From the NCBI GenBank assembly GCA_027923505.1, contig BROI01000033.1, forward strand, positions 186,001-250,000: DNA of 64,000 nt, written 5' to 3'. Each line of letters opens with the position of its first letter. Within the stretch, counting starts at the first letter, position 1. Of this stretch, positions 38,058-56,185 are shown piece by piece. Made by a program: the position numbers and the translations under genes. A model generated the notes under the pieces. It worked only from the letters and a program-made list of their open reading frames with translations. It was not told the origin of the DNA and made no database searches. This stretch comes from Mayamaea pseudoterrestris. Lineage: Eukaryota.

Positions 38058-40469
38058 ATGATCCCACGAAGAATCGCTTGCTTGCTTTCGCTGCTGCCAG
38101 CGGCGTTGGCGTTTGTGTCGCCGCTGCAGCAGCCGGCCCTCCTGTCGAAGCGCTCGTCGTCTCTGCAATCGGCCGTCTTGGACGAGCCAACGACCAAAGC
38201 ATCAGATGCGACAGCTACAACCAACATTCGGTAAGCAAACTGTTATTGTATGAGTGAAGGAATAGTTGCGAGAGAGAGATTTTCAGTGGGAGACGACGAC
38301 TGCGAGCTTTGATTCCCATCTTCTTGACTCTCGCGCGCACCTTTCTGTCTTGTCTCGGCAACTGAATGAAGAATAATTGAAAGCAATAAAAAGGACTACA
38401 TTGAGAGATAGGACGCGGTTTTTGAAAGTTCGGTGTTACTCGGGGTCTCTTTCGCGTTCCGCTCTTATCCACTTTTCCTCATTCGCTCACTCACTCACTC
38501 ACTCTCTCCATCCATCCATCCATCCATCCATCTTTCCACAGCAACTTGGCTGTGATTGCTCATGTCGATCATGGCAAAACGACTCTAGTCGATGCTTTGA
38601 TCAAACAATCTGGAGTCTTTCGTGATGAAGCGCAGTCCGACGAGGCTGGAACCTGCATCATGGACAGTGAAGATCAGGAACGCGAGCGAGGCATCACCAT
38701 TCTCGCCAAGAACCTTGCCGTGGTCTACGATGGAACCAAATTCAACATTTTGGACACTCCTGGTCACGCAGACTTTGGCGGGGAGGTCGAACGTGTGCTT
38801 AACATGGCCGATGGTGTTCTACTCGTTGTTGATAGCGTCGAGGGACCCAAGCCGCAGACGCGATTCGTCTTGGACAAGGCGCTCAAGAAGGGCTTGACGG
38901 CGCTGGTCGTTGTCAACAAGATTGACCGACCAGCCGCACGACCTGATTACGTTGTCGATAAGGTATTTGATTTGTTTGTGGAACTCGGAGCGACAGATGA
39001 ACAAACGGATTTCAAAGTTGTTTACGCATCGGGTCTCTTGGGCAAGGCCGGTTACACGCCAGACTCGTTGGAAGATTCCATGAAGCCACTCTTTGAAACG
39101 GCCCTCAAGACAATCCCCAGTCCAAAAGTCGATCGAACGGAACCGGAGGCGTTGCAGGCACTCGTCAGTAACATTGATTTCGATAACTTCAAGGGCAAGC
39201 TTGGTATTGCGAGAATCAGCAACGGATCCATTCGCAAGGGACAAGCCGTATCCCTCGTGCATCCAGATAAGCCAAAAAAGACTGGTCGGCTTGGTAATTT
39301 GTTCGTCTTTGACAATCTTGGCAAGCGCGAAGTCGAGGAGGCGCATGCTGGCGAAATTATCATGTTTGCCGGTCTCAATCCAGAGATTGGTGATACGCTT
39401 GTTACCAACGAGAATGGTGGAGCGAATGCTGCCGAACCAATGACGCCCATTGCCATTGAACAACCGACGGTGCGCATGACAATTGGCGTTAACAAGTCGC
39501 CCCTGGCTGGTCGAGAAGGAAAGCTACTGACGAGTCGCATGATTCGTGATCGCTTGTTCAAGGAACTTGATCGCAACGTGGCGCTGCAAGTGGAAGAAAC
39601 GGATTCAGCGGATCGGTACCAAGTGAGCGGACGTGGACAATTGCACTTGACCGTTTTGGTTGAAACCATGCGTCGCGAAGGATTCGAATTGGAGGTTGGG
39701 CCGCCGACTGTAATTTACAAGGAGAACCCAGAGACAGGCAAAATGGAGGAACCATGGGAAGCACTTGAGATTCGCGTACCGGAAGAATACAGTGGAGGCG
39801 TTATTGACCTATTGAACTTGCGCAAGGGCGAGCTTCAAGACATGGGTATTGAGGAAGGCGATGGAATGACAGTCGTCAAGTATTTGGTGCCAACGCGAGG
39901 CATGCTTGGATTGAGATCTTCCTTGCTGACTGCTACCCGTGGAACTGCCATTATTGATAGCGTCTTTGACTCGTATCGACCCAAGATTGCTGGTGAAATT
40001 CAAGCGCGAGACAAAGGCTCACGTAAGTACACCTTGGTGTATGCATCTGCTCGTGTGGACGTTATTGCTTTGGGTTGTACATATATTAAACTTGGCTGAC
40101 ACGTATGCGTTTGCGTCTCATCATTCAGTATTGGCTTATGCGGACGGGCAAATCACCACATTCGGCATTGAAGGCGCTCAAGAGCGCGGAAAGATGTTTG
40201 CGTCGCCTGGCGAAGAATGCTACAAGGGCATGATTGTTGGTATTCATCAAAGACCTGGAGATTTGGAGGTTAATGTTTGCAAAACCAAACAGTTGACAAA
40301 TATGCGTTCTGCCAACAAGGGAATTACGACCGGAATTGTCGCTCCTATTCAAATGTCTCTGGATGCCTGCGTCGAGTACCTGGCAGCTGATGAGATTCTT
40401 GAAGTGACACCAAGTTTGTTCCGCATGTCCAAGAACCCAGCCATGGCCGGAAAGAAGTCCAAGAAGTAA
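38058..40469 (+). CDS. typA: Plastid-targeted translational GTPase TypA/BipA, 3 exons
   Basis: Exons 38058-38230, 38542-40022 and 40129-40469. Splicing restores [16 protein letters not shown] and KGSLLA. Motifs [35 protein letters not shown] and KQLTNMRS. Presequence ...PAALA-FVSP resembles a heterokont bipartite signal. Confidence 0.96.
38486..38531. repeat. Compound microsatellite (CACT)n(CCAT)n in typA intron 1
   Basis: CTCACTCACTCACTCACTCTCTCCATCCATCCATCCATCCATCCAT lies just before the acceptor site. Confidence 0.85.
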
Positions 40470-40697
40470 AGTAGTGATGTAGATTACCAGTTTTGAACCT
40501 CCAACTAGCTGCAGCGTGGAACAAGGCACGTGAAGTCGTCGCTCATGACATAATGATTTTGCTCGTTGCAATTAAATAATGACAATATAAAAGAAAGCAG
40601 TTCAAATCATAATTAAATATATATGCAGCGTGTGTTCGTGTTATGTATAGATAGTGGACATATAATCACTTCGTCGCCTTTTCCCTCGCAAGCGAAG

Positions 40698-43497
40698 CTA
40701 TGACTTTCCGTTCCATCTGTTCCGACCGAAATTGCACAGCCGACGAACAAGACCTTGACTTGTATCGTCTGGGTCCTTATTGTCGTGGATGACATCGCCG
40801 CTGATAATCGGCTCGGTCGGAGACAAGGTTTGTCCAATGCTGTACGGCTCAATGGACGCAATTAAGGGGAACTCGACTGGACCTGCGTTCACCACGCGGA
40901 CAACGTTACCGTTACCGGGCGTTTCGATGACCATATACAAAGGTCGTGCCGATCCATCTTCTGAGTAAACATGAACAGATTGTTTTGAATTTGTTGGACC
41001 TTGCATCAACTCTATCGTTGCGTTAATCGGAAGGCCGTCTGTCCGCAAAAGCACCTGGACACTTTCGACCGACGCATCAAATGCATACGTCTTGAGAGCG
41101 CCGCCGTGAACCGTCTTTGCGCCGGTCTCAAAGTTAGACGACGCAGCCGACGGGAGTGCAGTGGCGACTCGTTCGTCTTCCTCCGCAACAATGTTGGCCG
41201 CCAATGGAAATTCGAGCAGACCAGAATTGCGAACCGAGACAGTATTGGGACCAATTGGTGTTTCAAAGACGGCGGAGAACGGCCGCTCATGTCCGTTTTC
41301 GCAGTATACTCTCATTTTGAACGGAACGTCATCAGGGCCACGCCAAAGATTCAACTCCGCATTCAAGGGTCGACCGCCAGTCTTTAACGCCACGTGAATA
41401 CGCTCAATCGCGTGATTTTTGAACGACCAAGTTTTTAGAGAGCCGCCTTGTACGGGCGACGCCTCGGTCATGTCCGAAATAAGTGCTGCAGGAGCCTTGT
41501 GAGCTCGAGTCACTTCTCTTTCTAATAAAGGGCGGACTTGTTTTCGCTCGTGGTAGTTTTTGGCAAGCGTCTCAATGGCTTGCGAGCGACGGACACTAGC
41601 CTCATGCGCCCGCTTGGCTCTATCCGCATTCCCTTGCAGCAGAGAATTAAAGCGGTCCTCGAAGCGTCGTCGCTGAGTCTGTAAAAATGCGAGAAGGAAA
41701 AAATGAGTGAGCGTGGAAAACTCGTTGCACGATCAAAGGTGCACATATACTCACAGTTTGCCTCGATGCTTCCATTTCCCGCGCCATATTGTGATCGTTG
41801 GTGGAGATTGTCACATCGTAATCACCGCTACTCGAGGATGCAATCACGTCGCTTCGCTGGTCTTCTCGCATGGGAATGTTTCCAAAGACTTCGGTCCGAG
41901 GTATGTAGCGAATGCCGGCGCTGTCCGACAATTCCGGCGCTCCGCCACCGCCATAGTACGATGACTGTTTAGTTCGTTGCAATGGTGCCGATGACATTGT
42001 TCGAACATCATTTCGAGGCGGTGCTCGTGTATCACCTGGCATGGTCCGTGCCATTGGAGCAGGTTTGGTCGGTTTCACAAGTCTCGTTGCTTCAATAATC
42101 GGCTCGATTGCAATATCTCCGTCATCCGTTTCAATATACGGCAATGGCATAGGCGGAGCAGGAAACATGCCCGTGACTGGTGCCTGTCGTGAGTACTTGA
42201 CTGCCTTTACTGCGAGTTCACTCTTTTCGGGTGCCTTGTACGGCATGGGAATGGGTGGAGCTGGAAATTTATTAACACTTGAAACTCTTGTACTCGTCGT
42301 TGGAGCTTTATATTGTGTGTCAAGTCTTTTAGATTGGAATGGTACTGGCCGGGCTGGGAAAGATGTTGCCGACGAAACTGGAATATCCTTAACGGAGTTA
42401 AACTTGATGCTATTGCCGTCGGCCAAAGAAGATTTCTTTTCACCATTCGAATTTTTAGACAGTGCTTGGTAAGTGGCGTCTCCTTCAGAAAGACGCGATA
42501 CGCCATAATCGTCAATAGGTTTGCTCACGGGCTGTGGCGAATTTGACTTTGATGCAATGCTTCGTGACAAGTTTTGTTGCAGCGACTCGAAAGATTGTCG
42601 TGGCGCACTGCTGCTGCTAGCTGACGAAAATTTCGTCCGCGACTTTGCTTCTGATTCACTTTTGCTAGCTGCTTGAGAACGCGACGGTGTTTCCGTCGAA
42701 GGTCGAGTTGACTGTGTCGGTTCCGCTTGCTGCTTCACCCCAGCGAAAGTCGTTGGTTCGTGCGTTTGATGTTTCTCCTGCGGTGTCGCCGTCGAAAGCC
42801 CCGAAAGAAAGCCATTGAATCCACTATCCGCGACAGCCTTGTACTTTGTTCCGCCACTGGCTGGGCCATATGACTTCTTTGGAGTTGCAGTTGCAGCAGC
42901 ACTTGAACCGGATGTACCTGACGATGACATGCTGCTAAAGTAATCTCCGGCTGAACCAATGGAAGCTGCTGCAGCGTTGGAGCTTTTAAAACCAGTCTCC
43001 TTTGGCCGATTTCGAGCTGTAGCAGATGATTCGCTAAACCTTGACGATCCTGTCATACCAGTAAAAGAGTCTCCAGCAGGCGATGCATCGGTTGCTGTGG
43101 CTCTCGACTCCAGTTGCGGGCGCTGCACCCTTGATGTCGACGATGACGAAATGTCTCTGGCATCCAGTGAGTACTTTCTAGGATCCATCTTCGCCGCAGT
43201 CCTTTTGGTCTTGTCATATGGATTCTTGAGAATCTCGTCGTCGTCAAGCGGTCCCAAGTTCTCGTACATGCTCCAAAAGTCCGTCAGGTCGGATGTACCG
43301 GTAGAGGATGCAGGAGTCGCAATCGGCCTTGCTGTCGACGGAGGAGCAAGCGTCGCGGTTGCCTTGGTAGCTGTAGACGAAGACGACTTCTGCACTTGCT
43401 GGAGTTGATCCAAGTAGCTTCCAAAGGCTTCGCTTGTTCGAATGGCCCCGCTGGCAAGCAGCAAAAGTTGCAGCATGTTGCTAGAGACGCGCGTCAT
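40698..43497 (-). CDS. PyShell: Spliced ~907-aa protein: plastid-type presequence, ~600-aa Ser/Thr/Ala/Pro-rich disordered region, C-terminal PyShell-like two-repeat domain
   Basis: Exon 1 is 43497-41755 and exon 2 is 41678-40698, separated by a 76-bp phase-0 intron (GTGAGT...TTTTTACAG, 41754-41679). Exon 2 reads without stops into the 40698..41513 ORF. The C-terminus has two homologous halves (VQGGSLKTWSF..GRPLNAELNLWRGPD..RPFSAVFETP..EFPL and VHGGALKTYAF..GLPINATIELMQGPT..RPLYMVIETP..EFPL) that match my recollection of PyShell CR1/CR2. N-terminus MLQLLLLASGAIRTSEA-FG. Confidence 0.8.
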
Positions 43498-43796
43498 GGT
43501 GGAAAGGATTGTGATATGCTGGCTGCAGTAGTAGTGGACGAGACGCAGCAAGATAAATGCAAGCGACTGTCTATCGTCTGCTTGGTGTCACGCTCGAGGA
43601 AAGGCTTGCGTCTTGTAATGTTCTGTGGCAGCAGCTCGCCTTCTTCTAAGGCGGTGTCGACTGCGTTTCTCGCGGCAATCGAATTTTGGGTGCGCCCCTT
43701 GCGAGGTGGCATCAGGAACGGCGAAAGTTGACCGACGTGGCCAAATCTGATATGACCGTGACAGTATCTTTCAAAGGTACTTAAATGATTGACATT

Positions 43797-44239
43797 TAAG
43801 ACTGGCCGGATAGAAATCCTGCGGATGACGTCATCAAGCGCCGGACGGACGTCACGAGAAAACTTCAAATCAAGTTCGCGTCGCCCTTTTTCACCAACGC
43901 GCAAAGCAGCGACAGTGCAACAAAGCTTCTACATCAATCTAAAGACAACCAACTAGCAATTTATAAAGAAAGATGCTGGCGCAGACTGGTCCCGTCGCTT
44001 GAGTATAGATTCTTTGGGGATGTTGAGGTGCGGAACGATTTTCGCTCAAGCGCGCAAGTGCGACATCCATCGGTACTCGACTGCGTCTTGGGATTGCTCG
44101 CGCACCTCCTCTCCGATTTTTACTCGTTGGTAACCGTTGGAAAGCCCGTCGAGTCGTGAATGAAATGTGATGCATAACTAAAAAACGTCAAAATGGTCAT
44201 CGTGACGTCATCCGCAGGATTTCTATCCGGCCAGTCTTA
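43797..44239. mobile_element. MITE-like non-autonomous DNA transposon, ~440 bp, perfect terminal inverted repeats, probable TA target-site duplication
   Basis: TAAGACTGGCCGGATAGAAATCCTGCGGATGACGTCA (43797-43833) is the exact reverse complement of 44203-44239 (37 bp including the outer TA). No credible internal gene. Confidence 0.85.
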
Positions 44240-45240
44240 TTTTTTGGCTCATTCGTTTTCACGTCAAACGAGGCTCTTTGTGAGTCATGGTGTGACACAT
44301 TAGAGAAAGCGTGACGTGCTGCGCGAGCAGGGCGAACAGGAGAGCAACAAGGTCACGAATTCATTCGGCCATGGCGCCCTCAATATTGGCGTCCATGCAG
44401 GCCAGACCACCTGATGCATCAATGGGTCAGCTATAATTTTGACAGGCAATCTGCTCAATGCGACGGTTGATAGAGATTGGATCAATGCGCGATTCGCAGG
44501 TGAAACTCACAGGTGAAGCAACGACGCCATTGACTTTCAAGCGGCCTTGAATGATGCATTATTTGAAACGCAAACAAGCTTCGATTCTCCGTTCCTTCAG
44601 CAACCGGCAAACCGTCTCATGACTAGTCCAGCTCGTCGTCGCTGACTGCCTTGCTGCAAACAGCAAACAGTCAGTCGCATCGAATCCAATGGCCATTTCT
44701 ATTAATGGCAACATTGTTTTGAATTCTATGATAGTCATTGGAGAGCTGAGATTGTGACTGAACAGTCATGTTTTGCTTTCATTGTGCGAGGCAAATGGAG
44801 ATGAGTCGCTCGTGGATGTGCCATGTGAAAACATAGGCGCTTGCTGGCTACGGTGAATGGCGAGTGCGAATGCATCGTAGACTTGGTTCAACGACGAGCG
44901 AGTTTCGTTACAATACAATGTGAGCGTAACAAATGTCGGCGGCAATAATCTGTGGGTGCAGTCAATGTTAAACACAAACATGGATCATAGTTTGCAACTG
45001 GCGGACGCCAAAAAACACTGCTTTGCTTCCAGCAGCCGTTTCTTGGTCAGAGATGTAAGAGCACATCTGAGCTAGTGGTACGAATAAACATGTAGGGAGT
45101 ATGTAAAAATACGGCATGTATTGTAAACAGCAGCTTATACAAGTCTGAACTCGTAGCCGCTCACAGGCCTCCAATTCGCCCATGGTCGTTTCTTTTTCAC
45201 AAGTATTGCCCGGCGCCAACTTTATTCGACAAACTCACCA

Positions 45241-46809
45241 TCAACGCTTTCCTGCAACAACTGATGTAGCCCAGCGCCACCATTTCTTGACAGACCCACC
45301 AACGCTTTTCTGCAATGCCCGAATACGCTTTACCATGTTGTATCTACGTCGCTTGCGTCGCTTGTGGCGATCACAGAGCATCGGATTCTCGCGACTCAGG
45401 TGGTAAAAGAGGCAGTCCAAATCATTGCTGACTGCTCCGAGTACTTTTGCTCCCGCCATTTTGTCCATGGCATCCCTAATGAGGTATTTACGACCCCCTT
45501 TGTTGAGTTGCGGAATGATTTCCACGCTCTTTTTGAACTCTGGGGTCCACGGATCCATCGTCTGTGGATGGGAGCGACCAAAGGCAGCCACCGTTTTAAA
45601 ACGAATGCTGCGAATCGTGTAATTCTTCTTCAGGGCTTGAACAAGCAAGGGCGCTGAAACAATTTGAGCATCGTCCGTAGAGCCAAGCGGCTTGCAGTGC
45701 ACAACAATTTCCTCGAGACCTCGATTCAATGGATCAACGCAATCAGCCAAGGCTTGGTCCAGTTCTGGGAGATAAGTGTGGAAACTAATCCCTAAATGTT
45801 TGAGCTGACGGCAATGCGCAACGGCTCGCACTAGCTGAACATTGGCTTGATCGTTCGCCAGCTTGTATGCAACAACAGCGGGATCATTTGGGTCGCGATA
45901 AAATAGGCGGCCTGACTTACTGAAGAAACCCATGTCCAATTTCTCCAACTGCGTCATGGTGTGAATGTGTTCCGCCAATAGCGTCAAAAAGTTCATGATG
46001 GTACTTTCGACAAAGGATAGGCTAGAGAATCGAATATCCTTGAGGTTGGAAGCAACAATGGCGTTTGCTAGCAAGACTGGTTCCGCAAAGGTGCATCCCG
46101 TCAAGTCCAAGCCGTTAATCTTTGTTTCAGTCAGCGCATTGCAAAAGATTTGTTGAAACTCTGGCGTTTCAAATTTCAAAAAATTCAGCTCGAGCTTGAG
46201 TAATGGATTGGTATGTCCCATGTTGAGCAGATCAGCGACAGCCCGAGCCGCCTCTGGCGAACTAATCACTTCCAGCAGATACCACTTTTCCAAAACCACC
46301 TTGGTGAGCGATTGAATCGTATGGAGCGCTGGTAGAATCATTGGATAGTACTTGACTGGAAGAGTGAGGCACATTCTTTCAAGGCTCGAGTGATTGGTTA
46401 GCGCTGCAACAAGCTCCATGCGAGTCGCTTCATCAATCTTTCGAATCGATAGACGGATGCTCTCCACATGCGGCATGCTCCTGAGAATCGAAACATGCCG
46501 TTCGTTCATTTCAAAGTCTTTGGTATCGTAGAAAAGCACCGTAATTCGACGCATGCAGCCAAGTGCTTGGCAAAAGATGGAAAATGAGCGCTCCATGGAT
46601 TGGCTGTTCAAACGAGGAAGCGGTCCAATGTCCAGCATGCGAACCGACGACTGCTTCATTGCCGTCAATGTTTCATGTAAATGAGCTTCGCGTAGACTCA
46701 AAATGTTAGAGACAAGAGAGGAATTGACTGACAGCCACCACTCCCAGGATGTGAGTTTCTGGATGAATTCAACATGAGTCTCGTTTTCAAGCCATTCGAT
46801 GGAGCTCAT
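45241..46809 (-). CDS. Leucine-rich repeat (RNI-like) protein of a diatom-expanded family, 522 aa
   Basis: Degenerate LxxLxL repeats (LERMCL, LTKVVL, LEKLDM, LKHLGI). The C-terminal LKKNYTI...LNKGGRKYL...VSNDLDCLFYHL.RENPMLC resembles this family. Confidence 0.8.
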   Translation of the reverse strand: MSSIEWLENETHVEFIQKLTSWEWWLSVNSSLVSNILSLREAHLHETLTAMKQSSVRMLDIGPLPRLNSQSMERSFSIFCQALGCMRRITVLFYDTKDFEMNERHVSILRSMPHVESIRLSIRKIDEATRMELVAALTNHSSLERMCLTLPVKYYPMILPALHTIQSLTKVVLEKWYLLEVISSPEAARAVADLLNMGHTNPLLKLELNFLKFETPEFQQIFCNALTETKINGLDLTGCTFAEPVLLANAIVASNLKDIRFSSLSFVESTIMNFLTLLAEHIHTMTQLEKLDMGFFSKSGRLFYRDPNDPAVVAYKLANDQANVQLVRAVAHCRQLKHLGISFHTYLPELDQALADCVDPLNRGLEEIVVHCKPLGSTDDAQIVSAPLLVQALKKNYTIRSIRFKTVAAFGRSHPQTMDPWTPEFKKSVEIIPQLNKGGRKYLIRDAMDKMAGAKVLGAVSNDLDCLFYHLSRENPMLCDRHKRRKRRRYNMVKRIRALQKSVGGSVKKWWRWATSVVAGKR

Positions 46810-47255
46810 GATTATTGATAATGCCGTACTATCGGAAGTAGAATATTATGAGCTTGCTTGCTGTTTGCTTGTATAACGTATGAGAAGAAGACAAGAGGAT
46901 CCTTCTGTATATTGCATTGATTGCGATGGAAGCGGCGGCGCAGCGGATTCTTCGCCCGCGCAACGCGACTTTGAGCGTCGCCGAGTGTCGCAACGCGACT
47001 ATTCCCCTTCGTGGAGCTGCACGATGACATAATATTATCATGTAAGTGACGCAGTTTTCACTAATGATGACGCACTTTTCATTGGAGCGAAACGCTCGGC
47101 GCGGCGATGGCCATGGCAAAAACGCAGAGCGGATCGACAAGTCCTTTTGCTTCCTACTTGTACGGATGAACAACTCTCTTGCTCTGCTTTGCTTTGCGTA
47201 CCATATAATATTGCTGACGTTCATCGTCTGATCAATCAATTTACGACGAATTAAC

Positions 47256-49727
47256 ATGTCACGGTGGTTGCAGAGCATTGGAAACGTTTTGGAGAAGCTG
47301 GATGATGGAGCTTCCCAAGCCATTCGCGAAACACTTGCACCATCAACTAATACTACCGCTATTAGCAATCAATATTACGAGAGCAGCGATAATGAGGAAG
47401 ACGAAGACGAATATTATGACGAAGATGATTTGGAGGAAGGAGAAGAAATGGACGACGAGGACGAGGAAGAGGTGAATGACGCAGATGCTGCAATCAACAA
47501 GGAGACTGTCGTTGTCAATGCCAGAGACGATATGCCTGTCCAAATGGAACAAGATGAGCCGCAAAATGTTATTGTCCAAGAGACGGAAGCTGCCAAGGAG
47601 CCTGGCCAAGAGACAAGTAACGCTGCAGCGAATCACGCAGCCGCAAAGACGGAAAAGCTACCTCCATTTACTACTGCGTTGACGTCGGCGGAAGAACCTG
47701 CATTGCAGACTCATCATCTAGTGGAGCCTACTGTAGAGCGAGCGAGTCAAGATGCGATAGATGCACCAGCTACGGCAGAAACGATGTCGACTGCCAAGGA
47801 AAGCAATCTGGTAAAAGAGACAGGAGCGGCAGCGGCATTTGCACATGCAGCGCCGGTGACTTTAACGATGCCGGATGAAGCTTCAGCAGCTACAAAAGCT
47901 TCCTCTCTTTCGTCACCGAATACTTTTAATGAAGACTCGTCCAAATTTTCTTCTATTTCATCATCCGTTGGTTCTGTTATCGACAAGGATAGTAGCCAGC
48001 AAAAGCAGGCTGATGCCGAGCATGCTCGTCTCCAGCAAACCATTCATGCGCTGGAACAACGGTACCGAACCGATGTTTCCAAACTCACTGATCAAATGGC
48101 GCGCATGGAGCAGCAACACAAGCAACAAGTGCAAACGATGAAGCAAAAGCATAGTCAGTCCAGTCAGCAACATGCGCAGCAACAAGATGCACTTTCGAAA
48201 CAAGTCGAGTCGCTCCAGTCGCAACTAAACCACGCCAATAACGAGTTGACGGCGCAGCAACGCGAGCTTGACCAGGCTGCACATGACATTCAGCAGGAAC
48301 GACAAGCCTGGAAGGAGGAAAAGCAAGAGCTGATGGAGGAGCAGGAGCAGGACCGTCTCGAATGGCAAGCGCAATTGTCGGAAACGCAGCGTGGTCAAAG
48401 CGATCAGCACCAGCAACACATACAGACGCTGCAGATGCAGCTGCAGGAAGCGACGCGACAATCCAAAGCGCAGCAGATTGAAGCTAATAAAAGGCTTCAA
48501 GCATCGGTTGCGAGAGAGGAAGCTTTGCAGACTCAAGTTGGCGAGCTACAAACGCAACAATATGCACTGGAGCAGCAACTTGCGCAAGCGACGCAAGCAA
48601 ACACTCAACTTGATAGTTCGTTAAGTGCTCTATCAAGTTCCTTGAGTCAAGCTCAGGAGCGGGAGCGGGCGGCGGAGCAAAAATTGGATGTCGCGTTGGA
48701 ACAGCATCAGCGTCAAACCACGCAACGAATGGCTCGCCAGGTGGAGTTGGAGCAGAATGTTCAGGAATTGAGCGAGGCATTGTCCAAGCAACAGCACTCA
48801 ATATCCCAGCAGCAGCCGTACAATGTAAACGACGCTACGACGACGACTTCCTCTGGTGGACAAGAGACTGGCGAAGTTTCGTGGAAGCAAAAGTATGAAA
48901 CTGTCGCCAATGAACTCGACACGCTCCAATCGCAGTTCCAGTTGAGTCAGCAGCAATGCCAGGCGATTCAAAATGAGTTAAACGACATGTCCAAAGAGCG
49001 CGAGATGGAGCTGGCGCATGCTACTAATCGTCAACGACAGCAGGATGCTGTTTTGGAGGACATGACGGGAAAGCTGCACCGGTTAGAGTCGACGTTGCGT
49101 GAACGACAGCAGAATCATACTGGCGCGGCAAGTACTGCAGCAGCAGATTATAATCCAATAGCTACTGGTGCGAACGGACATGCTTTGCAACGGGCTATTC
49201 GGGATGCTGAGCATGCCAAGCAACAAATGGCAGCACTGTCGGACCAGCTCATGCGTCAGCAAGGCACTGTTGATTCATACAAGGCAGAAAATCTCGCGCT
49301 AAAAGGCAGGTTACAAGCAGCCAATGCCAGAGCGGATGCAGCAGAGATTCAAATGTCGTCGGAAATGGAGAGTGCCAATGAAGGACCGTACGGACCGACG
49401 CCATCCAAGAATCGCCGACGAGTCAAGGGTGGGCGCTACGGCCGCGGGTTTTCCTCTCGATCAATGCGGGCGACGCTGGGTATGAGAGCAGCGCCAGTGG
49501 GAAGCATACAAGAACAGATCGGCGGCACGGTGGACGCATTTGACAAGTGGTTGCTTGACACGGGCGAAATTTTACGAAGCGAACCTGTTGCTCGGGTGGC
49601 TTTTACTGCCTACATTGCCGTGCTGCACGTTTGGTGCTTTGCTCTTGTGGCGTTTCACACAGTTCAGTCTGAACACGCCGACATCGGAGTCTTGACAAAC
49701 CGAGCTGCACCACTGCATCATACTTGA
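47256..49727 (+). CDS. Golgin-84 (GOLGA5)-like coiled-coil tail-anchored protein, 823 aa
   Basis: N-terminal MSRWL...LEKLD motif, long Q/E-rich coiled coil, and C-terminal D....G..LR..P.ARVAFTAYIAVLHVWCFALV transmembrane segment typical of golgin-84. Confidence 0.85.
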   Translation: MSRWLQSIGNVLEKLDDGASQAIRETLAPSTNTTAISNQYYESSDNEEDEDEYYDEDDLEEGEEMDDEDEEEVNDADAAINKETVVVNARDDMPVQMEQDEPQNVIVQETEAAKEPGQETSNAAANHAAAKTEKLPPFTTALTSAEEPALQTHHLVEPTVERASQDAIDAPATAETMSTAKESNLVKETGAAAAFAHAAPVTLTMPDEASAATKASSLSSPNTFNEDSSKFSSISSSVGSVIDKDSSQQKQADAEHARLQQTIHALEQRYRTDVSKLTDQMARMEQQHKQQVQTMKQKHSQSSQQHAQQQDALSKQVESLQSQLNHANNELTAQQRELDQAAHDIQQERQAWKEEKQELMEEQEQDRLEWQAQLSETQRGQSDQHQQHIQTLQMQLQEATRQSKAQQIEANKRLQASVAREEALQTQVGELQTQQYALEQQLAQATQANTQLDSSLSALSSSLSQAQERERAAEQKLDVALEQHQRQTTQRMARQVELEQNVQELSEALSKQQHSISQQQPYNVNDATTTTSSGGQETGEVSWKQKYETVANELDTLQSQFQLSQQQCQAIQNELNDMSKEREMELAHATNRQRQQDAVLEDMTGKLHRLESTLRERQQNHTGAASTAAADYNPIATGANGHALQRAIRDAEHAKQQMAALSDQLMRQQGTVDSYKAENLALKGRLQAANARADAAEIQMSSEMESANEGPYGPTPSKNRRRVKGGRYGRGFSSRSMRATLGMRAAPVGSIQEQIGGTVDAFDKWLLDTGEILRSEPVARVAFTAYIAVLHVWCFALVAFHTVQSEHADIGVLTNRAAPLHHT

Positions 49728-49800
49728 AGTACTACGCAATAGCTCCTGTTGATGCTCATCAATTCAATTTCTGATTTGTTTTACTTGATTAAAAATAAAA

Positions 49801-52800
49801 TTATTTTACAAAGTCAAGTTTAGTGAAGCGAAAGGAGCCAGTCTGTATTCCAACGTACGGTGCAGGAGTGCCACCAGAGCAAATCCCTTTTGCAAAGTCA
49901 GGGGTAGTAGCGACAAGTTGGCCGTTGACGTACCACTCCGCTCCTCGATTCGCACAGCGAATAATCGTCTTATCGCTTCGTCGAATCAATGTAGTGGTTT
50001 TAATCCTTTCAGTGTTTTCTGTCGAGTAAACTGTAACCTCCACTGGTTGCTCAGGTCCGACAAATAAAGACCCTGCTATGTAGCCCTTATCCACAACAAT
50101 GTTCCCCAAGAAGAAATCAGTGTCATACATAGTCCATCCAAAATCGCCTGCAGCGTTTGGTTGCAGCTCAATCTCAAACGACTCAACGTTGAGAGTATGG
50201 CCTCCAAGACGCTGCAGCACTATCAGCTTGTCGTCCATGGCATGCGTGTTTTCAATCTCTGTGTGAAGTGAATAATCAACGAGTGTAGCACCCTGTAAGT
50301 CCTCGTCAACGACGTAGGGACAGAAACCTGACAGCTCATCGCTTCTGTCATGCTCAGGATCATTATTCTCCGTTTCTGTAAAGTCATCGTCGAGGCGAGA
50401 AAAGTCATTAACGTCAAGCTGAGGTGCATCAGACGTGGCCGAAGAATCAAACGCTTCGTAAATCGGCGTGTCGTAGTAATCGTTGAGAAACGGTGGCTCG
50501 TATGTTGGTGACGAGTCAATATTACCGTAGCTTTCTAGTGGCGGCCCAAAATGTTCGGAATGTTGGGGTTCGAACATTGCTGCTTCTCCGGAGTCACTGT
50601 AGCTCGTTGGAGCTGGATAGTTTGAAGTAGGATATGGTGGCTCGAACGAATTTGCCTCAAATGCGCTGTAACTTGCAAGTGGCGGCCCGATTGTATCAAA
50701 ATAAGGTGGTCCAGAGGACGAAACTGGCCCATTGAAATCACCAACGCTAGCCGATTGTTGATTGTTATGCAGAAAAAGCATTTCTTCGTCGTCGGCAGGC
50801 TCAGTAATCATGTGATTGTCGTCGTTGGCTACGAATGGCCGCATCAACTCTTCATGTTCGAAAACCTCTGGCATCGCGCTAGCACGATAAGGTCGACTGA
50901 AAGTAGCTGCCTCTGTGACAGATCCATGATGACCTGCTGACGAAGGAGCTGATGGGGCCCACAGCGAGCCAAGGTATGCGTCATCTTTCACTGCCCTGTA
51001 CGAAGCGCCGCCCGGTGCGTACGATTTTCTTGAACCAGGAGAACTTTTTGCTGCATTTGAAGGAGAAGATAATCTCATTTGTGGTGCTTCAGCATCCTCT
51101 CGTTCTGCATTTGCTTGAAATTTCGGCGGCGACATCGCAGATGACGACAGTCCATCAGGAAACACAGCCTCCTTGTTTTGTTTGTATTGGCTGTCACCGG
51201 GAGCGTATATTTCCGAAGAGCCCGAATTATTGGAAGTTCCGCTAGGTGCCGCAGCAAGGCTCGCAAGATAGCCAGTGTCTTTCGTCTGTGCGTACTTCAT
51301 GCCAAATGGAGCGTGTGAATTTATCCGCCGCGCCACCGACGACCCGGTCGAAAGTGAACTGAGATAATCTCCGGACGATGTGGTGGTTTCGGTTATTCTC
51401 TTTTGTTTATCGTAAGTATCTGATTCGGAGGAACTTGACGATGCAATGTCGACTTGAGGTGATCTTAACAAAGCACTAGTATAGCTATCGCCATGACTTG
51501 CCGAATTCTTCGATACAGACGAGCTGACATGACCCCCACGAGAAACGTCACTCAAAGGAACCGATGCAGACGATGAGAGTCCAGCGAGAAACCCCGTTTC
51601 CTCGACTCTTTTAAATTTAGCACCTCCAGGAGCAAATGACTGCTTCGGGGGTAAGCTTGCTGCCGACATTGAGCTTAAGTAATCACTTGTTGTTGCAGAT
51701 GAAGCACTTTGAGAGTTTATTGCTGAGTTGGCTTCTGTTGGAACAGACAAATACTCAGGCGCCGGAACAGATGTGGGCGACGACAAGCCTGCCAGAAATC
51801 CGGTGTCCCTGACTGGTTTATACTTGCCGCCACCACCAGGAGCAAATGATTGCTTTGGTGTTGACGCCGATCTTTCTTTCGTCATGGCACTTAAATAGTC
51901 GCTTGTCGAGACAGCACGAGACGATGAACTGGAGTCCGGGCTGCTTGGACGGTAAATGGGTACCTTTGTTGATGAAGCTGTCGCATAGCTCCGCGATATC
52001 GATGAATCAGATACTGCGAATTCCTTGGCTCGTTGAATATTGTGGTCTCCGCCACCAGGAGCATAAGACTGCTGTCGTGTCGTCGAATCAGCAATATTTT
52101 GGCGAGATACAGTGCTTAAATAGGATGCGGCTTTTGTTGAAACCGTCGCTTTTGATCCGTTATGATTTGGGCTTGGAACGTTCGATTCATGTATTGTCGG
52201 AGGTGCTGCTGCCGATGATAAACTGGCCAGGAAACCAGTCTCCTTTACCGGTTTGAACTTGCCGCCGCCAGGTGCATAAGACTGTTTCGTTGGCGTTCCT
52301 GATTTGTTGCTAGCCATGGCGCTCAAGTAGTCACTGCTTGACGAAGCTGCTGATACTCTTGCATTTTGACTTGATCGAAACGAGCCGTGATTTGACTCAG
52401 TTGACGGCTGGCTTGCCGTTGGAGCTGGCGAGTCGCTAGGCATTTGATTCGATGATGCTTCTGACAAACCTGCTAGAAATCCGGTTTCTTTTACAGGTTT
52501 CCACTTGCCTCCGCCACCAGGGGCAAAGGACTGCCTGATCTTTGAACCAGGTGAGGAAGATTGAACAGCAGCAGCTCCTTGCGCATCTGTTGATGAGAAA
52601 TTGCTTACACCGTCGTGTGAGAGAACTGCTGAATCTCGTTCATTGACCAGATCATGAGCAGGTGGCGTTGATGATAAGCCTGCCAAGAATCCTGTCGCCT
52701 TAACTGGCATGAACCGTTTGCCTCCTCCGGGAGCAAAAGATTGTTTCGTTGTAAAAGTAGGGCTGGATGAAGTAGATTTCGTGTCGTGCTCTTTATTGGC

Positions 52801-55716
52801 GGACTCGGACGTCAAGCCGATTGATCGAGGTAAACTTGATGCGTATGACCCAGACTCCTTAATAGGCTTCCACGTGCCGCCGCCGCCAGGAGCGTAATTT
52901 TGCTTTGGAACATTTGCCGCAACGCTCGACGTACCAGGCACGGAACTCTGAAAATCACCCGCTGATGAAGGAGCAGCGTCTGCCAAGCCTTTTGGTTGAT
53001 AGTCACTGCTTTGTGGCTGACTGCGTGACCGAAAGTTGGGATCTGAAACTGCCGGATAGCTGGGTGCAGCCGTAGATGCTGCCGATGACAAACCGGCAAG
53101 AACCCCAGACTCCTTGACAGGTTTCCACTTGCCACCGCCACCAGGAGCAAATGATTGCTTTGAACCCTTGAAAGCATCACCCGTTGCGCCAGACGATGAC
53201 ATGGAACTCAGGTAGTCGCCGGTGGATGCAGGAACTGCTTTGCTTATCAAACCGCTCCGTTGCGGCGGATCCAGTGAAGATTTAAGTTCTGGAGCAGCGC
53301 TATTTTCTGGATTCTGTGCTGAAGCAACCGAAGATAAGCCGGCAAGAAATCCAGACTCCTTGACAGGTTTCCACTTGCCACCGCCACCAGGAGCAAATGA
53401 TTGCTTTGAAACCTTGGAAGCATCACCCGTTGCGCCAGACGATGACATGGAACTCAGGTAGTCACCGGTGGATGCAGGAACTGCTGTGCTTAACAAACCG
53501 CTCCGTTGCGGCAAATCCGGTGAAGATTTAAGTTCTGGAGCAGCGCTATTTTCTGGTTTCGGGACAGAAGAAGCTGCGGACGATAAACCAGCAAGAAATC
53601 CAGACTCCTTGACAGGTTTCCATTTGCCACCGCCACCAGGAGCAAACGATTGTTTTGGAACCTTTGAAGAAACTGTCGCACCCGACATGGAACTCAAGTA
53701 GTCACCAGTTGATGCAGGAGCAGAGTTTGCCGAACCAATTGGTTGCGAAGGAGGGCTTGGCTCTGGAGCAGCGCTATAAATTGGCTTTGGAGTAGAAGAA
53801 GCTGTGGATGATAAACCTGCAAGAAATCCAGATTCCTTGACGGGATTCCACTTGCCGCTGCCACCAGGAGCAAACGACTGTTTCGGAGCCTTTGAAGAAC
53901 CTGTCGCACCCGACATGGAACTCAAGTAATCAATCGTTGATGCAGGAGCAGAGTTTGCCGAACCAATTGGTTGCGAAGGAGGGCTTGGTTCTGGAGCAGC
54001 GCTATAAACTGGTTTTGGAGTAGAAGAAGCTGTGGACGATAAACCGGCAAGAAACCCAGATTCCTTAACAGGTTTCCACTTGCCACCACCACCAGGAGCA
54101 AAGGACTGTTTCGACAACTTTGAAGAATCTGTTGCACCCGACATGGAACTCAAGTAGTCACCCGTCGATGCAGACGCAGCAGAGTTGGCTGCGCTACTCG
54201 TCTGATATGGGCTGTCGCTTTGCGGCAAGCTTGCAGGAACGCTTGGCCCACGAGCAGTTGGAGAAGCCGGCGCGCGATCATTAGACTCGTTGGACGATAA
54301 ATAGGCAAGGAATCCAGTCTCCTTGACGGGTTTCCACTTGCCACCAGGAGCGTACGACTGTTGTTTCGGAGCCTTTGAAGCTGACACACCCGACATGGCA
54401 CTTAAATAATCGCTCGTCGATGCGGCAGCTGTTGATTGTTGCGTGAATTCATTCGATTCGTCACGATCCGGCGACTTGTAGTAGCTCGGTGGTGCTGCAG
54501 GTGCAGATGAAGATTGGGGTGCAGCAGTGGCTTCTGTAATTGTATGCGAGGCTGACAGTCCCGCCAGAAATCCAGTCTCCTTGGCTTGCTTGAACTTGCT
54601 AGCGGGCGCGTACGATTTCTGCTTGCTGCCGCTGGCCGTTTGTCCCTTGGACATGCGACTCAAATAGTCCGTCGTTGACGCTGCAGCATTATCTGATGCT
54701 TGCTCTGAACTCGACGCAGCCGACTGCGACTTCCATTTAGTTGCTCCTCCTGGTGCGTAGGAGGACTGCTTGCTGGTGTCGCTCATCGTTTGCGACGACG
54801 AAGAAGACGACGTTGATCCCTTGGACATGCGAGTCAAGTAGTCACTCGTGGATGCAGCACCGTTGGATGATTCATCAACCGTCGCCGCATTTTTGGAATC
54901 AAGCGAGAGGGACCGAGACGACGACGATGATTTCCAACTGCCTGGAGAGTAGGATTTTTGATTGCTGCTGGTGGAACTTGTCGAAGACGCCATTCGACTC
55001 AAGTAGTCGCTCGTCGAAGCAGCAGGCGCAGAATTTACGTCGTGACTCGTCGCTTGCTGTTCGTTTCCAGTGCGAGCCGACTCGGACGAACCTGCCGACT
55101 GCTTCCAACTGCTACTAGCTCCTGATCCAGGAGCGTAGCTATTCTTGCTCTTGCTGCTGCTACCCGTTGCTCTTTCGGCGCTTGGTCCAGCGCTAGACAT
55201 GGACGACAAGTAGTCGGATGATGACGCAGCAGCTGTCGCTGTGGCTTTTGGTGCAGTCACTTTGGCATCCTTTGATTGAGAATTTGCCTTTGAACTCGTT
55301 CCATATGGAGCGTAGGAAACTTTCATTGTCGTCGTAGAGAGTTCTTGCTTGGACGAGGACGAAAGCGCCGACAAGTAGTCCATGGTTGATGCCGCTGCTG
55401 CTGTTGCTGCAGCTTCGTCTTTCGTCGCTGGCACTTCGGCGAATGAATGACGAGCCAATGGCAATCGTTCGTCGTCACGTTTCGAGCCGTCATGATGATG
55501 ATGCTGTGACTTGGAAGCGCCAGATGCAGCAGGAGGAGCAGGAGCAAACGACGACGATTGACTGCTGCTGCGGCTTGCACTCGATTCCAATTGATTCAAG
55601 TAAGAATTGGAACCAAAGGCTGCCGCAGCTTGCTCCGAAGGCTTGACTTGTAGACATGCGACTAGCAGAATGCATAGCCATTGCCTTGGTGACTTTGAAA
55701 GGACTGCTGCTGTCAT
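49801..55716 (-). CDS. ~1970-aa Ser/Ala-rich repeat protein with signal/plastid-type presequence, ~20 SYAPGG-KWKP-GFLAGLS repeats and a C-terminal beta-rich domain
   Basis: Uninterrupted 6-kb ORF with first ATG at 55716. Hydrophobic WLCILLVACL followed by AAAA-FG. Recurrent DYLSSMS and KQS(F/Y)APGGGGKWKPVKESGFLAGLSS; core units 228-246 bp. Confidence 0.92.
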   Translation of the reverse strand: MTAAVLSKSPRQWLCILLVACLQVKPSEQAAAAFGSNSYLNQLESSASRSSSQSSSFAPAPPAASGASKSQHHHHDGSKRDDERLPLARHSFAEVPATKDEAAATAAAASTMDYLSALSSSSKQELSTTTMKVSYAPYGTSSKANSQSKDAKVTAPKATATAAASSSDYLSSMSSAGPSAERATGSSSKSKNSYAPGSGASSSWKQSAGSSESARTGNEQQATSHDVNSAPAASTSDYLSRMASSTSSTSSNQKSYSPGSWKSSSSSRSLSLDSKNAATVDESSNGAASTSDYLTRMSKGSTSSSSSSQTMSDTSKQSSYAPGGATKWKSQSAASSSEQASDNAAASTTDYLSRMSKGQTASGSKQKSYAPASKFKQAKETGFLAGLSASHTITEATAAPQSSSAPAAPPSYYKSPDRDESNEFTQQSTAAASTSDYLSAMSGVSASKAPKQQSYAPGGKWKPVKETGFLAYLSSNESNDRAPASPTARGPSVPASLPQSDSPYQTSSAANSAASASTGDYLSSMSGATDSSKLSKQSFAPGGGGKWKPVKESGFLAGLSSTASSTPKPVYSAAPEPSPPSQPIGSANSAPASTIDYLSSMSGATGSSKAPKQSFAPGGSGKWNPVKESGFLAGLSSTASSTPKPIYSAAPEPSPPSQPIGSANSAPASTGDYLSSMSGATVSSKVPKQSFAPGGGGKWKPVKESGFLAGLSSAASSVPKPENSAAPELKSSPDLPQRSGLLSTAVPASTGDYLSSMSSSGATGDASKVSKQSFAPGGGGKWKPVKESGFLAGLSSVASAQNPENSAAPELKSSLDPPQRSGLISKAVPASTGDYLSSMSSSGATGDAFKGSKQSFAPGGGGKWKPVKESGVLAGLSSAASTAAPSYPAVSDPNFRSRSQPQSSDYQPKGLADAAPSSAGDFQSSVPGTSSVAANVPKQNYAPGGGGTWKPIKESGSYASSLPRSIGLTSESANKEHDTKSTSSSPTFTTKQSFAPGGGKRFMPVKATGFLAGLSSTPPAHDLVNERDSAVLSHDGVSNFSSTDAQGAAAVQSSSPGSKIRQSFAPGGGGKWKPVKETGFLAGLSEASSNQMPSDSPAPTASQPSTESNHGSFRSSQNARVSAASSSSDYLSAMASNKSGTPTKQSYAPGGGKFKPVKETGFLASLSSAAAPPTIHESNVPSPNHNGSKATVSTKAASYLSTVSRQNIADSTTRQQSYAPGGGDHNIQRAKEFAVSDSSISRSYATASSTKVPIYRPSSPDSSSSSRAVSTSDYLSAMTKERSASTPKQSFAPGGGGKYKPVRDTGFLAGLSSPTSVPAPEYLSVPTEANSAINSQSASSATTSDYLSSMSAASLPPKQSFAPGGAKFKRVEETGFLAGLSSSASVPLSDVSRGGHVSSSVSKNSASHGDSYTSALLRSPQVDIASSSSSESDTYDKQKRITETTTSSGDYLSSLSTGSSVARRINSHAPFGMKYAQTKDTGYLASLAAAPSGTSNNSGSSEIYAPGDSQYKQNKEAVFPDGLSSSAMSPPKFQANAEREDAEAPQMRLSSPSNAAKSSPGSRKSYAPGGASYRAVKDDAYLGSLWAPSAPSSAGHHGSVTEAATFSRPYRASAMPEVFEHEELMRPFVANDDNHMITEPADDEEMLFLHNNQQSASVGDFNGPVSSSGPPYFDTIGPPLASYSAFEANSFEPPYPTSNYPAPTSYSDSGEAAMFEPQHSEHFGPPLESYGNIDSSPTYEPPFLNDYYDTPIYEAFDSSATSDAPQLDVNDFSRLDDDFTETENNDPEHDRSDELSGFCPYVVDEDLQGATLVDYSLHTEIENTHAMDDKLIVLQRLGGHTLNVESFEIELQPNAAGDFGWTMYDTDFFLGNIVVDKGYIAGSLFVGPEQPVEVTVYSTENTERIKTTTLIRRSDKTIIRCANRGAEWYVNGQLVATTPDFAKGICSGGTPAPYVGIQTGSFRFTKLDFVK

Positions 55717-56185
55717 GATTTTGATGGCTGATTGGTTGGCGGCAGCTAGGGGTACAAGCACTGAATGTAAATCAATCAATCCAACAAGGACTTGAAACAG
55801 CAGTGATAAGAGTCTCCTCAAACCGATTATATATACAGTGAATGCGATAAGCTACCGGTAGTCGGATGATGGTCTTTTGATGGACGACTCGGTTGATGGA
55901 TCCAAATCCTAAAGGCCGAAAGCGTTTGCGGTCGTTGATCAAGGATGAGGTGCGGCGAGACGTTCATCGATGGTGGGACACGTCGATCACTCGTTTCGGC
56001 GAGCAAACACATCAACATGCCAACGGCTGCGACTGACGTATGCAGACACTGAGTGTCAAGCAGAGTGTACGTTGGTCAAAGTCGCAACGAGAATGGTGCA
56101 ATGTAAATACCAGTAGCTAACCTGTGACTATCTATTCAATTCTATTGCGCACATACGTCGCGCTTGATACTTTGGCAGTCAGCAT

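Follow-up and report, generated by a model that had tools for sequence, protein, structure and literature searches.

How is Rubisco packed in the pyrenoids of diatoms, and how is the resulting matrix attached to the protein shell? Outside one species, both are unexplained. As far as the available parts of the literature go, every characterised pyrenoid has its Rubisco condensed by proteins that are disordered and multivalent, with many copies of one short motif. According to the accessible text of two preprints, the linker motif is also present on boundary proteins in Chlamydomonas (EPYC1) and Ulva (SUPA1), and ties structures to the matrix (10.1101/2023.10.26.564148; 10.64898/2026.07.16.738900). 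Here, we consider whether a similar arrangement is encoded by Mayamaea pseudoterrestris. The window, meaning the whole stretch of DNA analysed, is 64,000 nucleotides (nt) of contig BROI01000033.1 (assembly GCA_027923505.1, positions 186,001 to 250,000 of the forward strand). Two genes in the window, referred to as gene A and gene B, encode a fusion protein with a PyShell domain and a giant repeat protein. Both contain the same 46-residue unit. Might this unit connect the shell to a network built from the repeat protein? Our analysis indicates that the unit is homologous, old and conserved, and suggests that it could act in this way.

Gene A belongs to the PyShell family. The match to PF25192 (DiatomPyrShell) scores 264.5 bits, where the cut-off is 27, and covers profile positions 5-209 of 209. 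Similarly, the solved Thalassiosira pseudonana chain 8wqp_A aligns with gene A in a single stretch (query 75-282 versus chain 15-217, E 2.4e-74). N-terminal to the PyShell domain is a disordered arm of ~600 residues. The spliced product is the deposited protein P0004, with 100% identity over 907 amino acids (aa). Assembled contigs are available from four public runs, X1 to X4. Those of three runs (X2, X3 and X4) join position 41678 to 41755, so that the intron between arm and PyShell exons is precisely removed. Hence, the fusion is a real spliced transcript. None of the listed runs is catalogued as RNA; from the spliced contigs only, we infer that X2-X4 are RNA. Contigs of X1, which cover genes and spacers alike, retain the intron. 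Note that contig depth in X1-X4 permits no ranking of expression. Since gene A is a bona fide PyShell gene, and the fusion transcript exists, the gene fusion places the unit in physical connection with the shell of the pyrenoid. The features of gene A, with coordinates in the window, are as follows.

40698..43497, minus strand: gene A, PyShell fusion protein MPSEU_001056900, 907 aa (from open reading frames (ORFs), splice sites and spliced translation)
43497-41755, minus strand: exon 1, with Met at 43497; 581 codons
41679..41754, minus strand: intron, GT..AG, 76 nt, between the disordered-arm and PyShell exons; skipped by contigs of X2, X3 and X4
41678-40698, minus strand: exon 2, stop codon included
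43426..43497, minus strand: predicted signal peptide, residues 1-24, cut between RTSEA and F (by eye: hydrophobic core, small residues at -3/-1, Phe at +1)
43399..43425, minus strand: N-terminal half-unit FGSYLDQLQ, at the predicted cut; matches FGSNSYLNQLE of gene B
42982..43083, minus strand: decayed unit, ~residues 139-172, ending RPKETGF (spanned by the BLASTP alignment; the profile gives a KETGF fragment)
42790..42954, minus strand: intact unit, residues 182-236 (BLASTP, profile, six-frame scan and ortholog alignment)
42133..42360, minus strand: proline-rich FPAPPxPxPY motifs, residues 380-455; kept in the ortholog P0005
40845..41465, minus strand: PyShell domain (PF25192; Pfam E 7.3e-79, 264.5 bits; 8wqp_A E 2.4e-74)

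Gene B is on the same strand as gene A. The gene B product matches P0001 at 1971 aa, and contigs of X2-X4 lie on the gene (for example, a 2989-nt piece at 49886-52871 without a joint). The units occupy a region with an isoelectric point (pI) of 9.43 and 23.5% Ser. Full copies, spanning at least 38 of the 46 profile positions, account for 14 of 20 profile matches; the other six are partial. Spacing between units is mostly 55-87 aa, and their consensus is ASTGDYLSSMS-x(4-9)-KQSFAPGGGGKWKPVKESGFLAGLSS. The features of gene B are listed below.

49801..55716, minus strand: gene B, repeat protein, 1971 aa, single exon; Met at 55716, stop codon at 49801-49803
55618..55716, minus strand: predicted signal peptide, residues 1-33, cut between QAAAA and F (by eye)
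55585..55617, minus strand: N-terminal half-unit FGSNSYLNQLE; the counterpart in P0024 is FSSSYLNQL
50962..55392, minus strand: repeat region, residues 109-1585; 20 profile matches at domain E < 0.01
53082..54173, minus strand: youngest units, still recognisable at the DNA level as tandem repeats of 246 and 228 nt (88-90% matches)
50347..50919, minus strand: acidic Pro/Ser-rich spacer, residues 1600-1790, pI 4.05
49804..50343, minus strand: C-terminal concanavalin A-like (ConA-like) beta-sandwich, common to P0003, P0009, P0013 and P0024

Are the units of the two genes truly related? If composition is left uncorrected (cbs 0), BLASTP aligns nearly any part of the arm of A with B, at ~23% identity. 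Hence, control for composition matters. With composition-based statistics, the unit region alone of the arm still matches B (A 144-237 versus B 600-714, E 7.8e-7, plus more unit matches). As a separate measure, a profile of 46 positions was built from 12 gene B units, with nothing from gene A. This profile matches A 182-233 at 21.1 bits. When residues 1-600 of A were shuffled (n=2000), 1775 shuffles gave any score and the maximum was 9.4 bits. In a six-frame scan of the whole 64-kb window, covering all stop-to-stop frames of at least 30 aa, domain E < 0.01 was reached only in the frames of A and B. Judged by profile, alignment and shuffles, we conclude that the unit is homologous between gene A and gene B.

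A previous, sequence-only reading of this DNA had described two same-strand genes ~6 kb apart, ending in different folded domains and sharing a unit present once in A. The ORFs and spliced translation bear out the positions and the common (minus) strand, with a distance of 6.3 kb. The folded ends do differ, being PyShell (PF25192, 8wqp_A) in A and a ConA-like sandwich in B (AlphaFold2 (AF2) and Foldseek; see below), and the similarity of the units withstands composition correction (E 7.8e-7; 21.1 bits versus at most 9.4 in shuffles). The copy number requires adjustment. While A does have one intact unit (residues 182-236), a decayed second copy is located upstream (~139-172), so that the content is roughly 1.5 to 2 units. 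In an AF2 model of a single unit, short helices form at residues 3-10 (over DYLSSM) and 40-43 (over FLAG) within a coil, with a predicted local distance difference test score (pLDDT) of 64. Such a look, in the model, would be usual for a motif that folds upon binding.

The unit is not confined to these two genes. We searched 1.84 billion representative proteins with the profile and obtained 16 matches at E up to 0.001. These are gene B itself, 13 plausible relatives with the same units, and two matches (P0014 and P0015) that were rejected as family members because they contain other repeat types. We conclude that the unit defines an unnamed protein family. The members described next come from these relatives and from mates in their sequence clusters. 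P0002 is a paralog in the same species, with 12 units and, by eye, an E/K/Q-rich coiled-coil-like stretch. P0009, P0013 and P0024 are orthologs of gene B. P0024, at a full length of 612 aa, agrees with gene B in its N-terminus (AAAAA followed by FSSSYLNQL), in having an acidic spacer and in its C-terminal domain. However, profile matches number five in P0024 and 20 in gene B. Across the orthologs of B, the layout is preserved and the number of units changes; this would be expected if valency were the property being tuned. P0005 is an ortholog of the arm of gene A, and bears the unit. Other unit-bearing repeat proteins are P0006, P0008, P0010, P0011, P0012, P0016-P0018 and P0019 (environmental records). 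Units, or the ConA-like domain, also occur with oligomerising parts: the coiled-coil-like stretch of P0002 and a BTB_2 domain in P0003. The latter protein is from the same species, on another contig, and has a plastid-type N-terminus, DYL half-units, the BTB_2 tetramerisation-type domain and a ConA-like C-terminus of the gene B type. It also has 14 PG[AS]xW repeats, ~40-45 residues apart. P0003 is a further linker-like candidate.

Further searches, each scoring up to 8000 candidates from a word index, found little else. Gene B retrieved only itself, P0002 and P0003; the arm of A retrieved only itself and P0005; and the unit profile, against longer proteins, retrieved only B, P0002, P0009 and A. 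Since at most 8000 candidates are scored, absence from these results is weak evidence. Searches for related loci gave 54 pattern matches with the ConA-like alignment and 223 with the A-arm/P0005 alignment, none of which was confirmed. Protein atlas look-ups of P0008 and the ConA-like domain gave weak, unrelated neighbours only.

Might the copy of the unit in gene A be functional? We compared 57 units from 14 proteins, with each protein weighted equally. The pattern of the core is DYLSxMS ... K-x-S-[YF]-x-P-x-G-x-K-x-K-x-V-x-[ED]-[ST]-G-[YF]-L-x-x-L. Conserved core positions (n=14) are K21, S23, [YF]24, P26, G29, K31, K33, V35, [ED]37, [ST]38, G39, [YF]40, L41 and L44; D5-Y6-x-S8, in the first half of the unit, is conserved in addition. 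The unit of A retains 14/14 core positions, and has a 3-residue insertion in common with its ortholog. Between the arms of A and P0005, identity in 30-aa windows is mostly 0.07-0.3. Identity is highest in the unit (0.67-0.70). Other islands are the N-terminus (0.6), the FPAPPxPxPY region (0.63) and an IRYIPRTEVFG stretch (0.57). The upstream unit of A has decayed and the intact unit has been kept; hence, selection holds this copy, as for a short binding motif. We conclude, from this pattern of conservation, that the intact unit of A is under constraint.

The FPAPPxPxPY motif is found, by pattern match, at residues 411 and 445 of the gene A arm. A weaker version, FPARPVPF, was seen by eye slightly upstream, and the motif occurs three times in the ortholog P0005. 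These proline-rich motifs could be a further docking site.

The unit of A is 34-43% identical to units of B, and 40-48% identical, over shorter spans, to units of P0002, P0006, P0010, P0012 and P0024. Being no closer to B than to units of other species, the module was shared long ago and is no product of recent copying between the two genes. P0005 has the unit already and, by these comparisons, we conclude that the sharing is old and family-wide. The sequence-only reading had proposed a duplicated module, attached to two different domains. Homology of both unit and N-terminus, on different domains, agrees with this, but the identities above do not favour a local duplication.

We next consider the N-termini, which the same reading had described as matching after removal of the presequence. 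Note that signal peptides of A, B and their relatives were judged by eye, without a predictor. Local alignment of A 1-60 with B 1-75 gives a score of 54, reached by 1/5000 shuffles. Restricting the alignment to the residues beyond the predicted cut gives a score of 41, which 32/5000 shuffles attain. Hence, the N-terminal match of A and B is weaker than the unit match but, on these controls, real. Ten members of the family begin with a hydrophobic stretch (A, B, P0003, P0005, P0008, P0010, P0011, P0017, P0019 and P0024). In each of them, small residues at -3/-1 of a plausible cut are combined with F, W, Y or L at +1. An aromatic +1 residue is the hallmark of stramenopile plastid presequences; the ASAFAP motif is cited in the PyShell/Shell literature. 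Family members with whole N-termini are thus predicted, by eye, to have diatom plastid-type presequences. In P0024, KKSYAPGGG comes after SYLNQL. The matching N-terminus thus looks like the first half-unit of the family. The SYLxQL stretch begins at the predicted signal-peptide cut, in the position expected of a transit peptide. This makes the description of these N-termini as mature doubtful, even though the match itself stands. The last 10 residues of P0002 and P0007 are both SPI[RK]SYLS[NT]LR[NS], with the YLxxL half-motif at the extreme C-terminus.

How do A and B relate to known systems? PyShell/Shell proteins include TpPyShell1 (PDB 8wqp), PtPyShell1a/1b/2a/2b and T. pseudonana Shell1-6, grouped in PF25192. 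Gene A likewise has a full PyShell domain, in the C-terminal 270 residues, and a predicted plastid-type presequence. The accessible text of the preprint gives TpPyShell1 68 disordered N-terminal residues (bioRxiv 10.1101/2023.10.25.564039); in contrast, the arm of gene A is ~600 residues and bears a unit in common with a giant repeat protein. In the sections consulted of two PyShell/Shell preprints, no fusion of a unit to a long arm is described, though figures and supplements might show longer homologs. Similarly, no description of the unit or the fusion was found in literature on diatom pyrenoid linkers and shells, of which preprint supplements could list such proteins.

The nearest parallel to gene B is PYCO1 of Phaeodactylum tricornutum. 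The available part of that report describes basic, disordered repeats of ~80 aa, with motifs that act as stickers, and its authors found no homolog outside P. tricornutum (PMC10288592). PYCO1 and gene B are alike in being plastid-targeted (predicted, for B) and in having disordered, basic tandem repeats with aromatic-centred short motifs; for gene B, repeat region pI is 9.4 and the period is mostly 55-87 aa. Conversely, gene B is more than three times longer than PYCO1 and ends in a folded domain. We looked for characteristic motifs in six proteins (A, B, P0002, P0003, P0008 and P0024). Neither KWSP, from the KWSPR/Q small-subunit sticker of PYCO1, nor the PYCO1 self-association motif GTGYNP was present in any of the six. 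The same six contain no occurrence of the EPYC1-type pattern [DN]W[RK]xx[LIVA]. Hence, gene B is neither PYCO1 nor EPYC1, where the distinction from PYCO1 is by motifs. The EPYC1 and SUPA1 systems are alike in logic, since a motif repeated in the linker also appears, once or a few times, on structural proteins of the pyrenoid boundary. Their sequences are unrelated to those of A and B and, while binding has been shown in green algae, A and B are known here from sequence alone.

FLIPPer criteria for linkers, in the portion of the source at hand, are at least 3 repeats, a largely disordered chain and pI above 8 (10.64898/2026.07.16.738900). Gene B has 20 profile matches, 14 of them near full length. 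The pI is 9.43 for the repeat region and 6.39 for the whole protein, the lower value being due to the acidic tail.

In carboxysomes, the scaffolds CsoS2 and CcmM/CcmN combine cargo-binding repeat peptides with a part that contacts the shell. These proteins are bacterial, and unrelated in sequence to the unit and gene B. We conclude that A and B are a candidate system of the linker-and-shared-motif type, which appears to fall in none of the known linker families.

Our preferred interpretation is that the unit is a sticker, that gene B is a pyrenoid scaffold, and that the arm of A hooks the shell into the same network. We regard this as a plausible proposal, and stop just short of calling it probable. 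The 46-residue unit would be a short linear interaction module of plastid-targeted, serine-rich, disordered diatom repeat proteins. Gene B would be a multivalent scaffold, in which a basic disordered chain with ~20 units leads into an acidic spacer and, at the C-terminus, a ConA-like binding domain. Gene A would provide a lattice-forming PyShell subunit, whose ~600-residue arm displays a single conserved unit along with further short motifs that are also conserved. Since A and B present the same unit, both would engage the same partner. For this partner we consider Rubisco, the units themselves and a factor on the shell side, and make no choice among these. With any of them, the shell would be anchored in a pyrenoid network built from B.

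In a more far-reaching version, the unit would serve as a diatom 'pyrenoid code', a sticker common to giant linkers (B and its orthologs, 5-20 units), shell subunits (A) and oligomeric scaffolds (P0002 and P0003). The B family would then be the missing system for Rubisco condensation, or for shell-matrix tethering, in raphid diatoms that lack PYCO1, and would follow the logic of the Chlamydomonas Rubisco-binding motif while having evolved independently of it. We consider this quite unlikely.

Several observations weigh against a sticker that joins shell and scaffold. We infer that the unit binds, what its partner would be and that B is in the pyrenoid; for the last of these, the module in common with A is the only basis. 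The Trp of KWKP in B is not conserved across the family; hence, a Trp sticker like that of PYCO1 is not indicated. As noted, gene B as a whole is not basic. All signal-peptide calls are by eye and the N-terminus of P0002 is ambiguous. Two unrelated ORFs intervene between A and B, and their proximity may be a coincidence. Finally, named family matches are all from Mayamaea pseudoterrestris and none is in a named model diatom. Hence, the family may be narrow, or absent where pyrenoid proteomes are known. A complex prediction with the PyShell domain of A, the ConA-like domain of B and one unit gave ipSAE (interaction prediction score from aligned errors) values of 0.00 in two runs, made without alignments or controls, and weighs on neither side.

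Could the repeat proteins instead be a stromal family, unrelated to pyrenoid assembly? They might coat thylakoids, bind glycans or lipids via the ConA-like domain, or serve as a hydrated spacer. The unit in A would then be a relic of an old fusion that supplied the presequence and disordered arm. Logically, this fits with the fusion itself being the sole link to the pyrenoid, and with carbohydrate-binding modules and galectins being the nearest solved folds of the ConA-like domain. In addition, units are also found together with unrelated parts of other proteins, for example coiled-coil-like stretches, and the arm of A has no significant match to any family member outside ~residues 144-241. 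However, a relic should decay. That the unit is instead the best conserved part of the arm, with all 14 core positions intact, while the neighbouring upstream copy did decay, argues for selection on the intact copy. We therefore consider a stromal role unlikely, though it is a serious competitor to the sticker proposal.

A different possibility is that the shared N-terminus and unit reflect a constraint on plastid import. In this case, the shared element would be a reused presequence, or resemble a transit peptide, and would not be a binding motif of the mature proteins. The SYLxQL match does begin directly at the predicted cut, where a transit peptide should lie, and flanking sequences are Ser/Thr-rich and basic. 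Furthermore, a YLxx[LIM] half-motif is found, by eye, at most five residues from the cut in 7 of the 10 proteins listed above that begin with a hydrophobic stretch. Conversely, full units recur to residue 1585 of B, and the intact unit of A is ~160 residues past the cut, in both cases beyond any transit peptide. The half-motif that closes P0002 and P0007, at their extreme C-termini, also argues against a pure import role. Hence, we find this explanation very unlikely. There is next to no chance that similarity between A and B is a by-product of low-complexity composition, rich in Ser, Ala and Gly. This would account for the alignment of almost any part of the A arm with B by uncorrected BLASTP, but is refuted by the corrected E value, by the profile score of 21.1 bits against a maximum of 9.4 in shuffles, and by conservation of the same residues, position by position, in 14 proteins.

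If A and B do act through a common unit, they would bear on a gap in the field. In the accessible text on T. pseudonana, no repeat linker is found and an unknown matrix-shell adaptor is proposed (10.1101/2023.10.26.564148). A 2026 review, in the part available, lists no further diatom linker. Shells that come away from the matrix have been reported for shell4 mutants. Natural fusion of a linker-type unit to a shell subunit is a Rosetta-stone clue in this respect. It names concrete candidates, which are gene B, its orthologs, P0002 and P0003, and offers the 25-residue core as a target for mutation. If the proposal is true, engineers would have a second sticker-and-shell pair from the red lineage.

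The C-terminus of gene B was analysed separately. Its last 180 residues match P0003 (BLASTP E 1e-27, 39% identity) and also align with P0009, P0013 and P0024. A Pfam search assigns this domain to no family. An AF2 model is a beta-sandwich of medium confidence (pLDDT 67.7; predicted template modelling score, pTM, 0.70). Foldseek, with this model, gave nine matches at E up to 0.001. The best is the carbohydrate-binding module CBM66 4b1m (E 4.4e-5, template modelling (TM) score 0.51-0.55), and further matches are SPRY/B30.2 domains, galectins and LG domains. We conclude from the model that the C-terminus of gene B is a putative ConA-like binding module. For the repeats, solved chains gave no match to the unit profile at E up to 10, nor to the gene B repeat region at E up to 1. 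Assignment of gene B to PF21875 (calpain-13-like EF-hand; E 7.8e-11) was rejected as a repeat artefact, arising from summed weak matches. No stretch passes alone, the best is 16 residues, and the precomputed Pfam label is equally untrustworthy.

One X4 contig joins 53679 to 54140 in the gene B repeats, so that 460 nt (~two units) are skipped, with seven other letters between. Another piece in this region (53625-54140) steps back 231 nt. Either the tandem repeats have collapsed during assembly or there is an allele in which units are fewer.

Between genes A and B are ORFs at 45241-46809 (minus strand, 522 aa) and 47256-49727 (plus strand, 823 aa), neither of which bears the unit. Pfam has nothing for the 522-aa protein. 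The 823-aa protein is Q/E-rich, with a Golgin_A5 match below the cut-off (30.5 versus 31.7 bits).

Elsewhere in the window, positions 1-30880 are ~31 kb of satellite DNA, with monomers of 172-181 bp and arrays to ~30.9 kb. A two-monomer unit of 352 bp is 99% alike across 1-17294, and a different array, of 169 bp, is at 21701-25977. No ORF of at least 300 aa occurs before 35558. This satellite DNA may be centromeric or subtelomeric. Within 40300-56000, contigs of the four runs differ from the window sequence at many places, and 44/120 pieces of X1 are only 95-99% alike. This suggests a second allele or a different strain.

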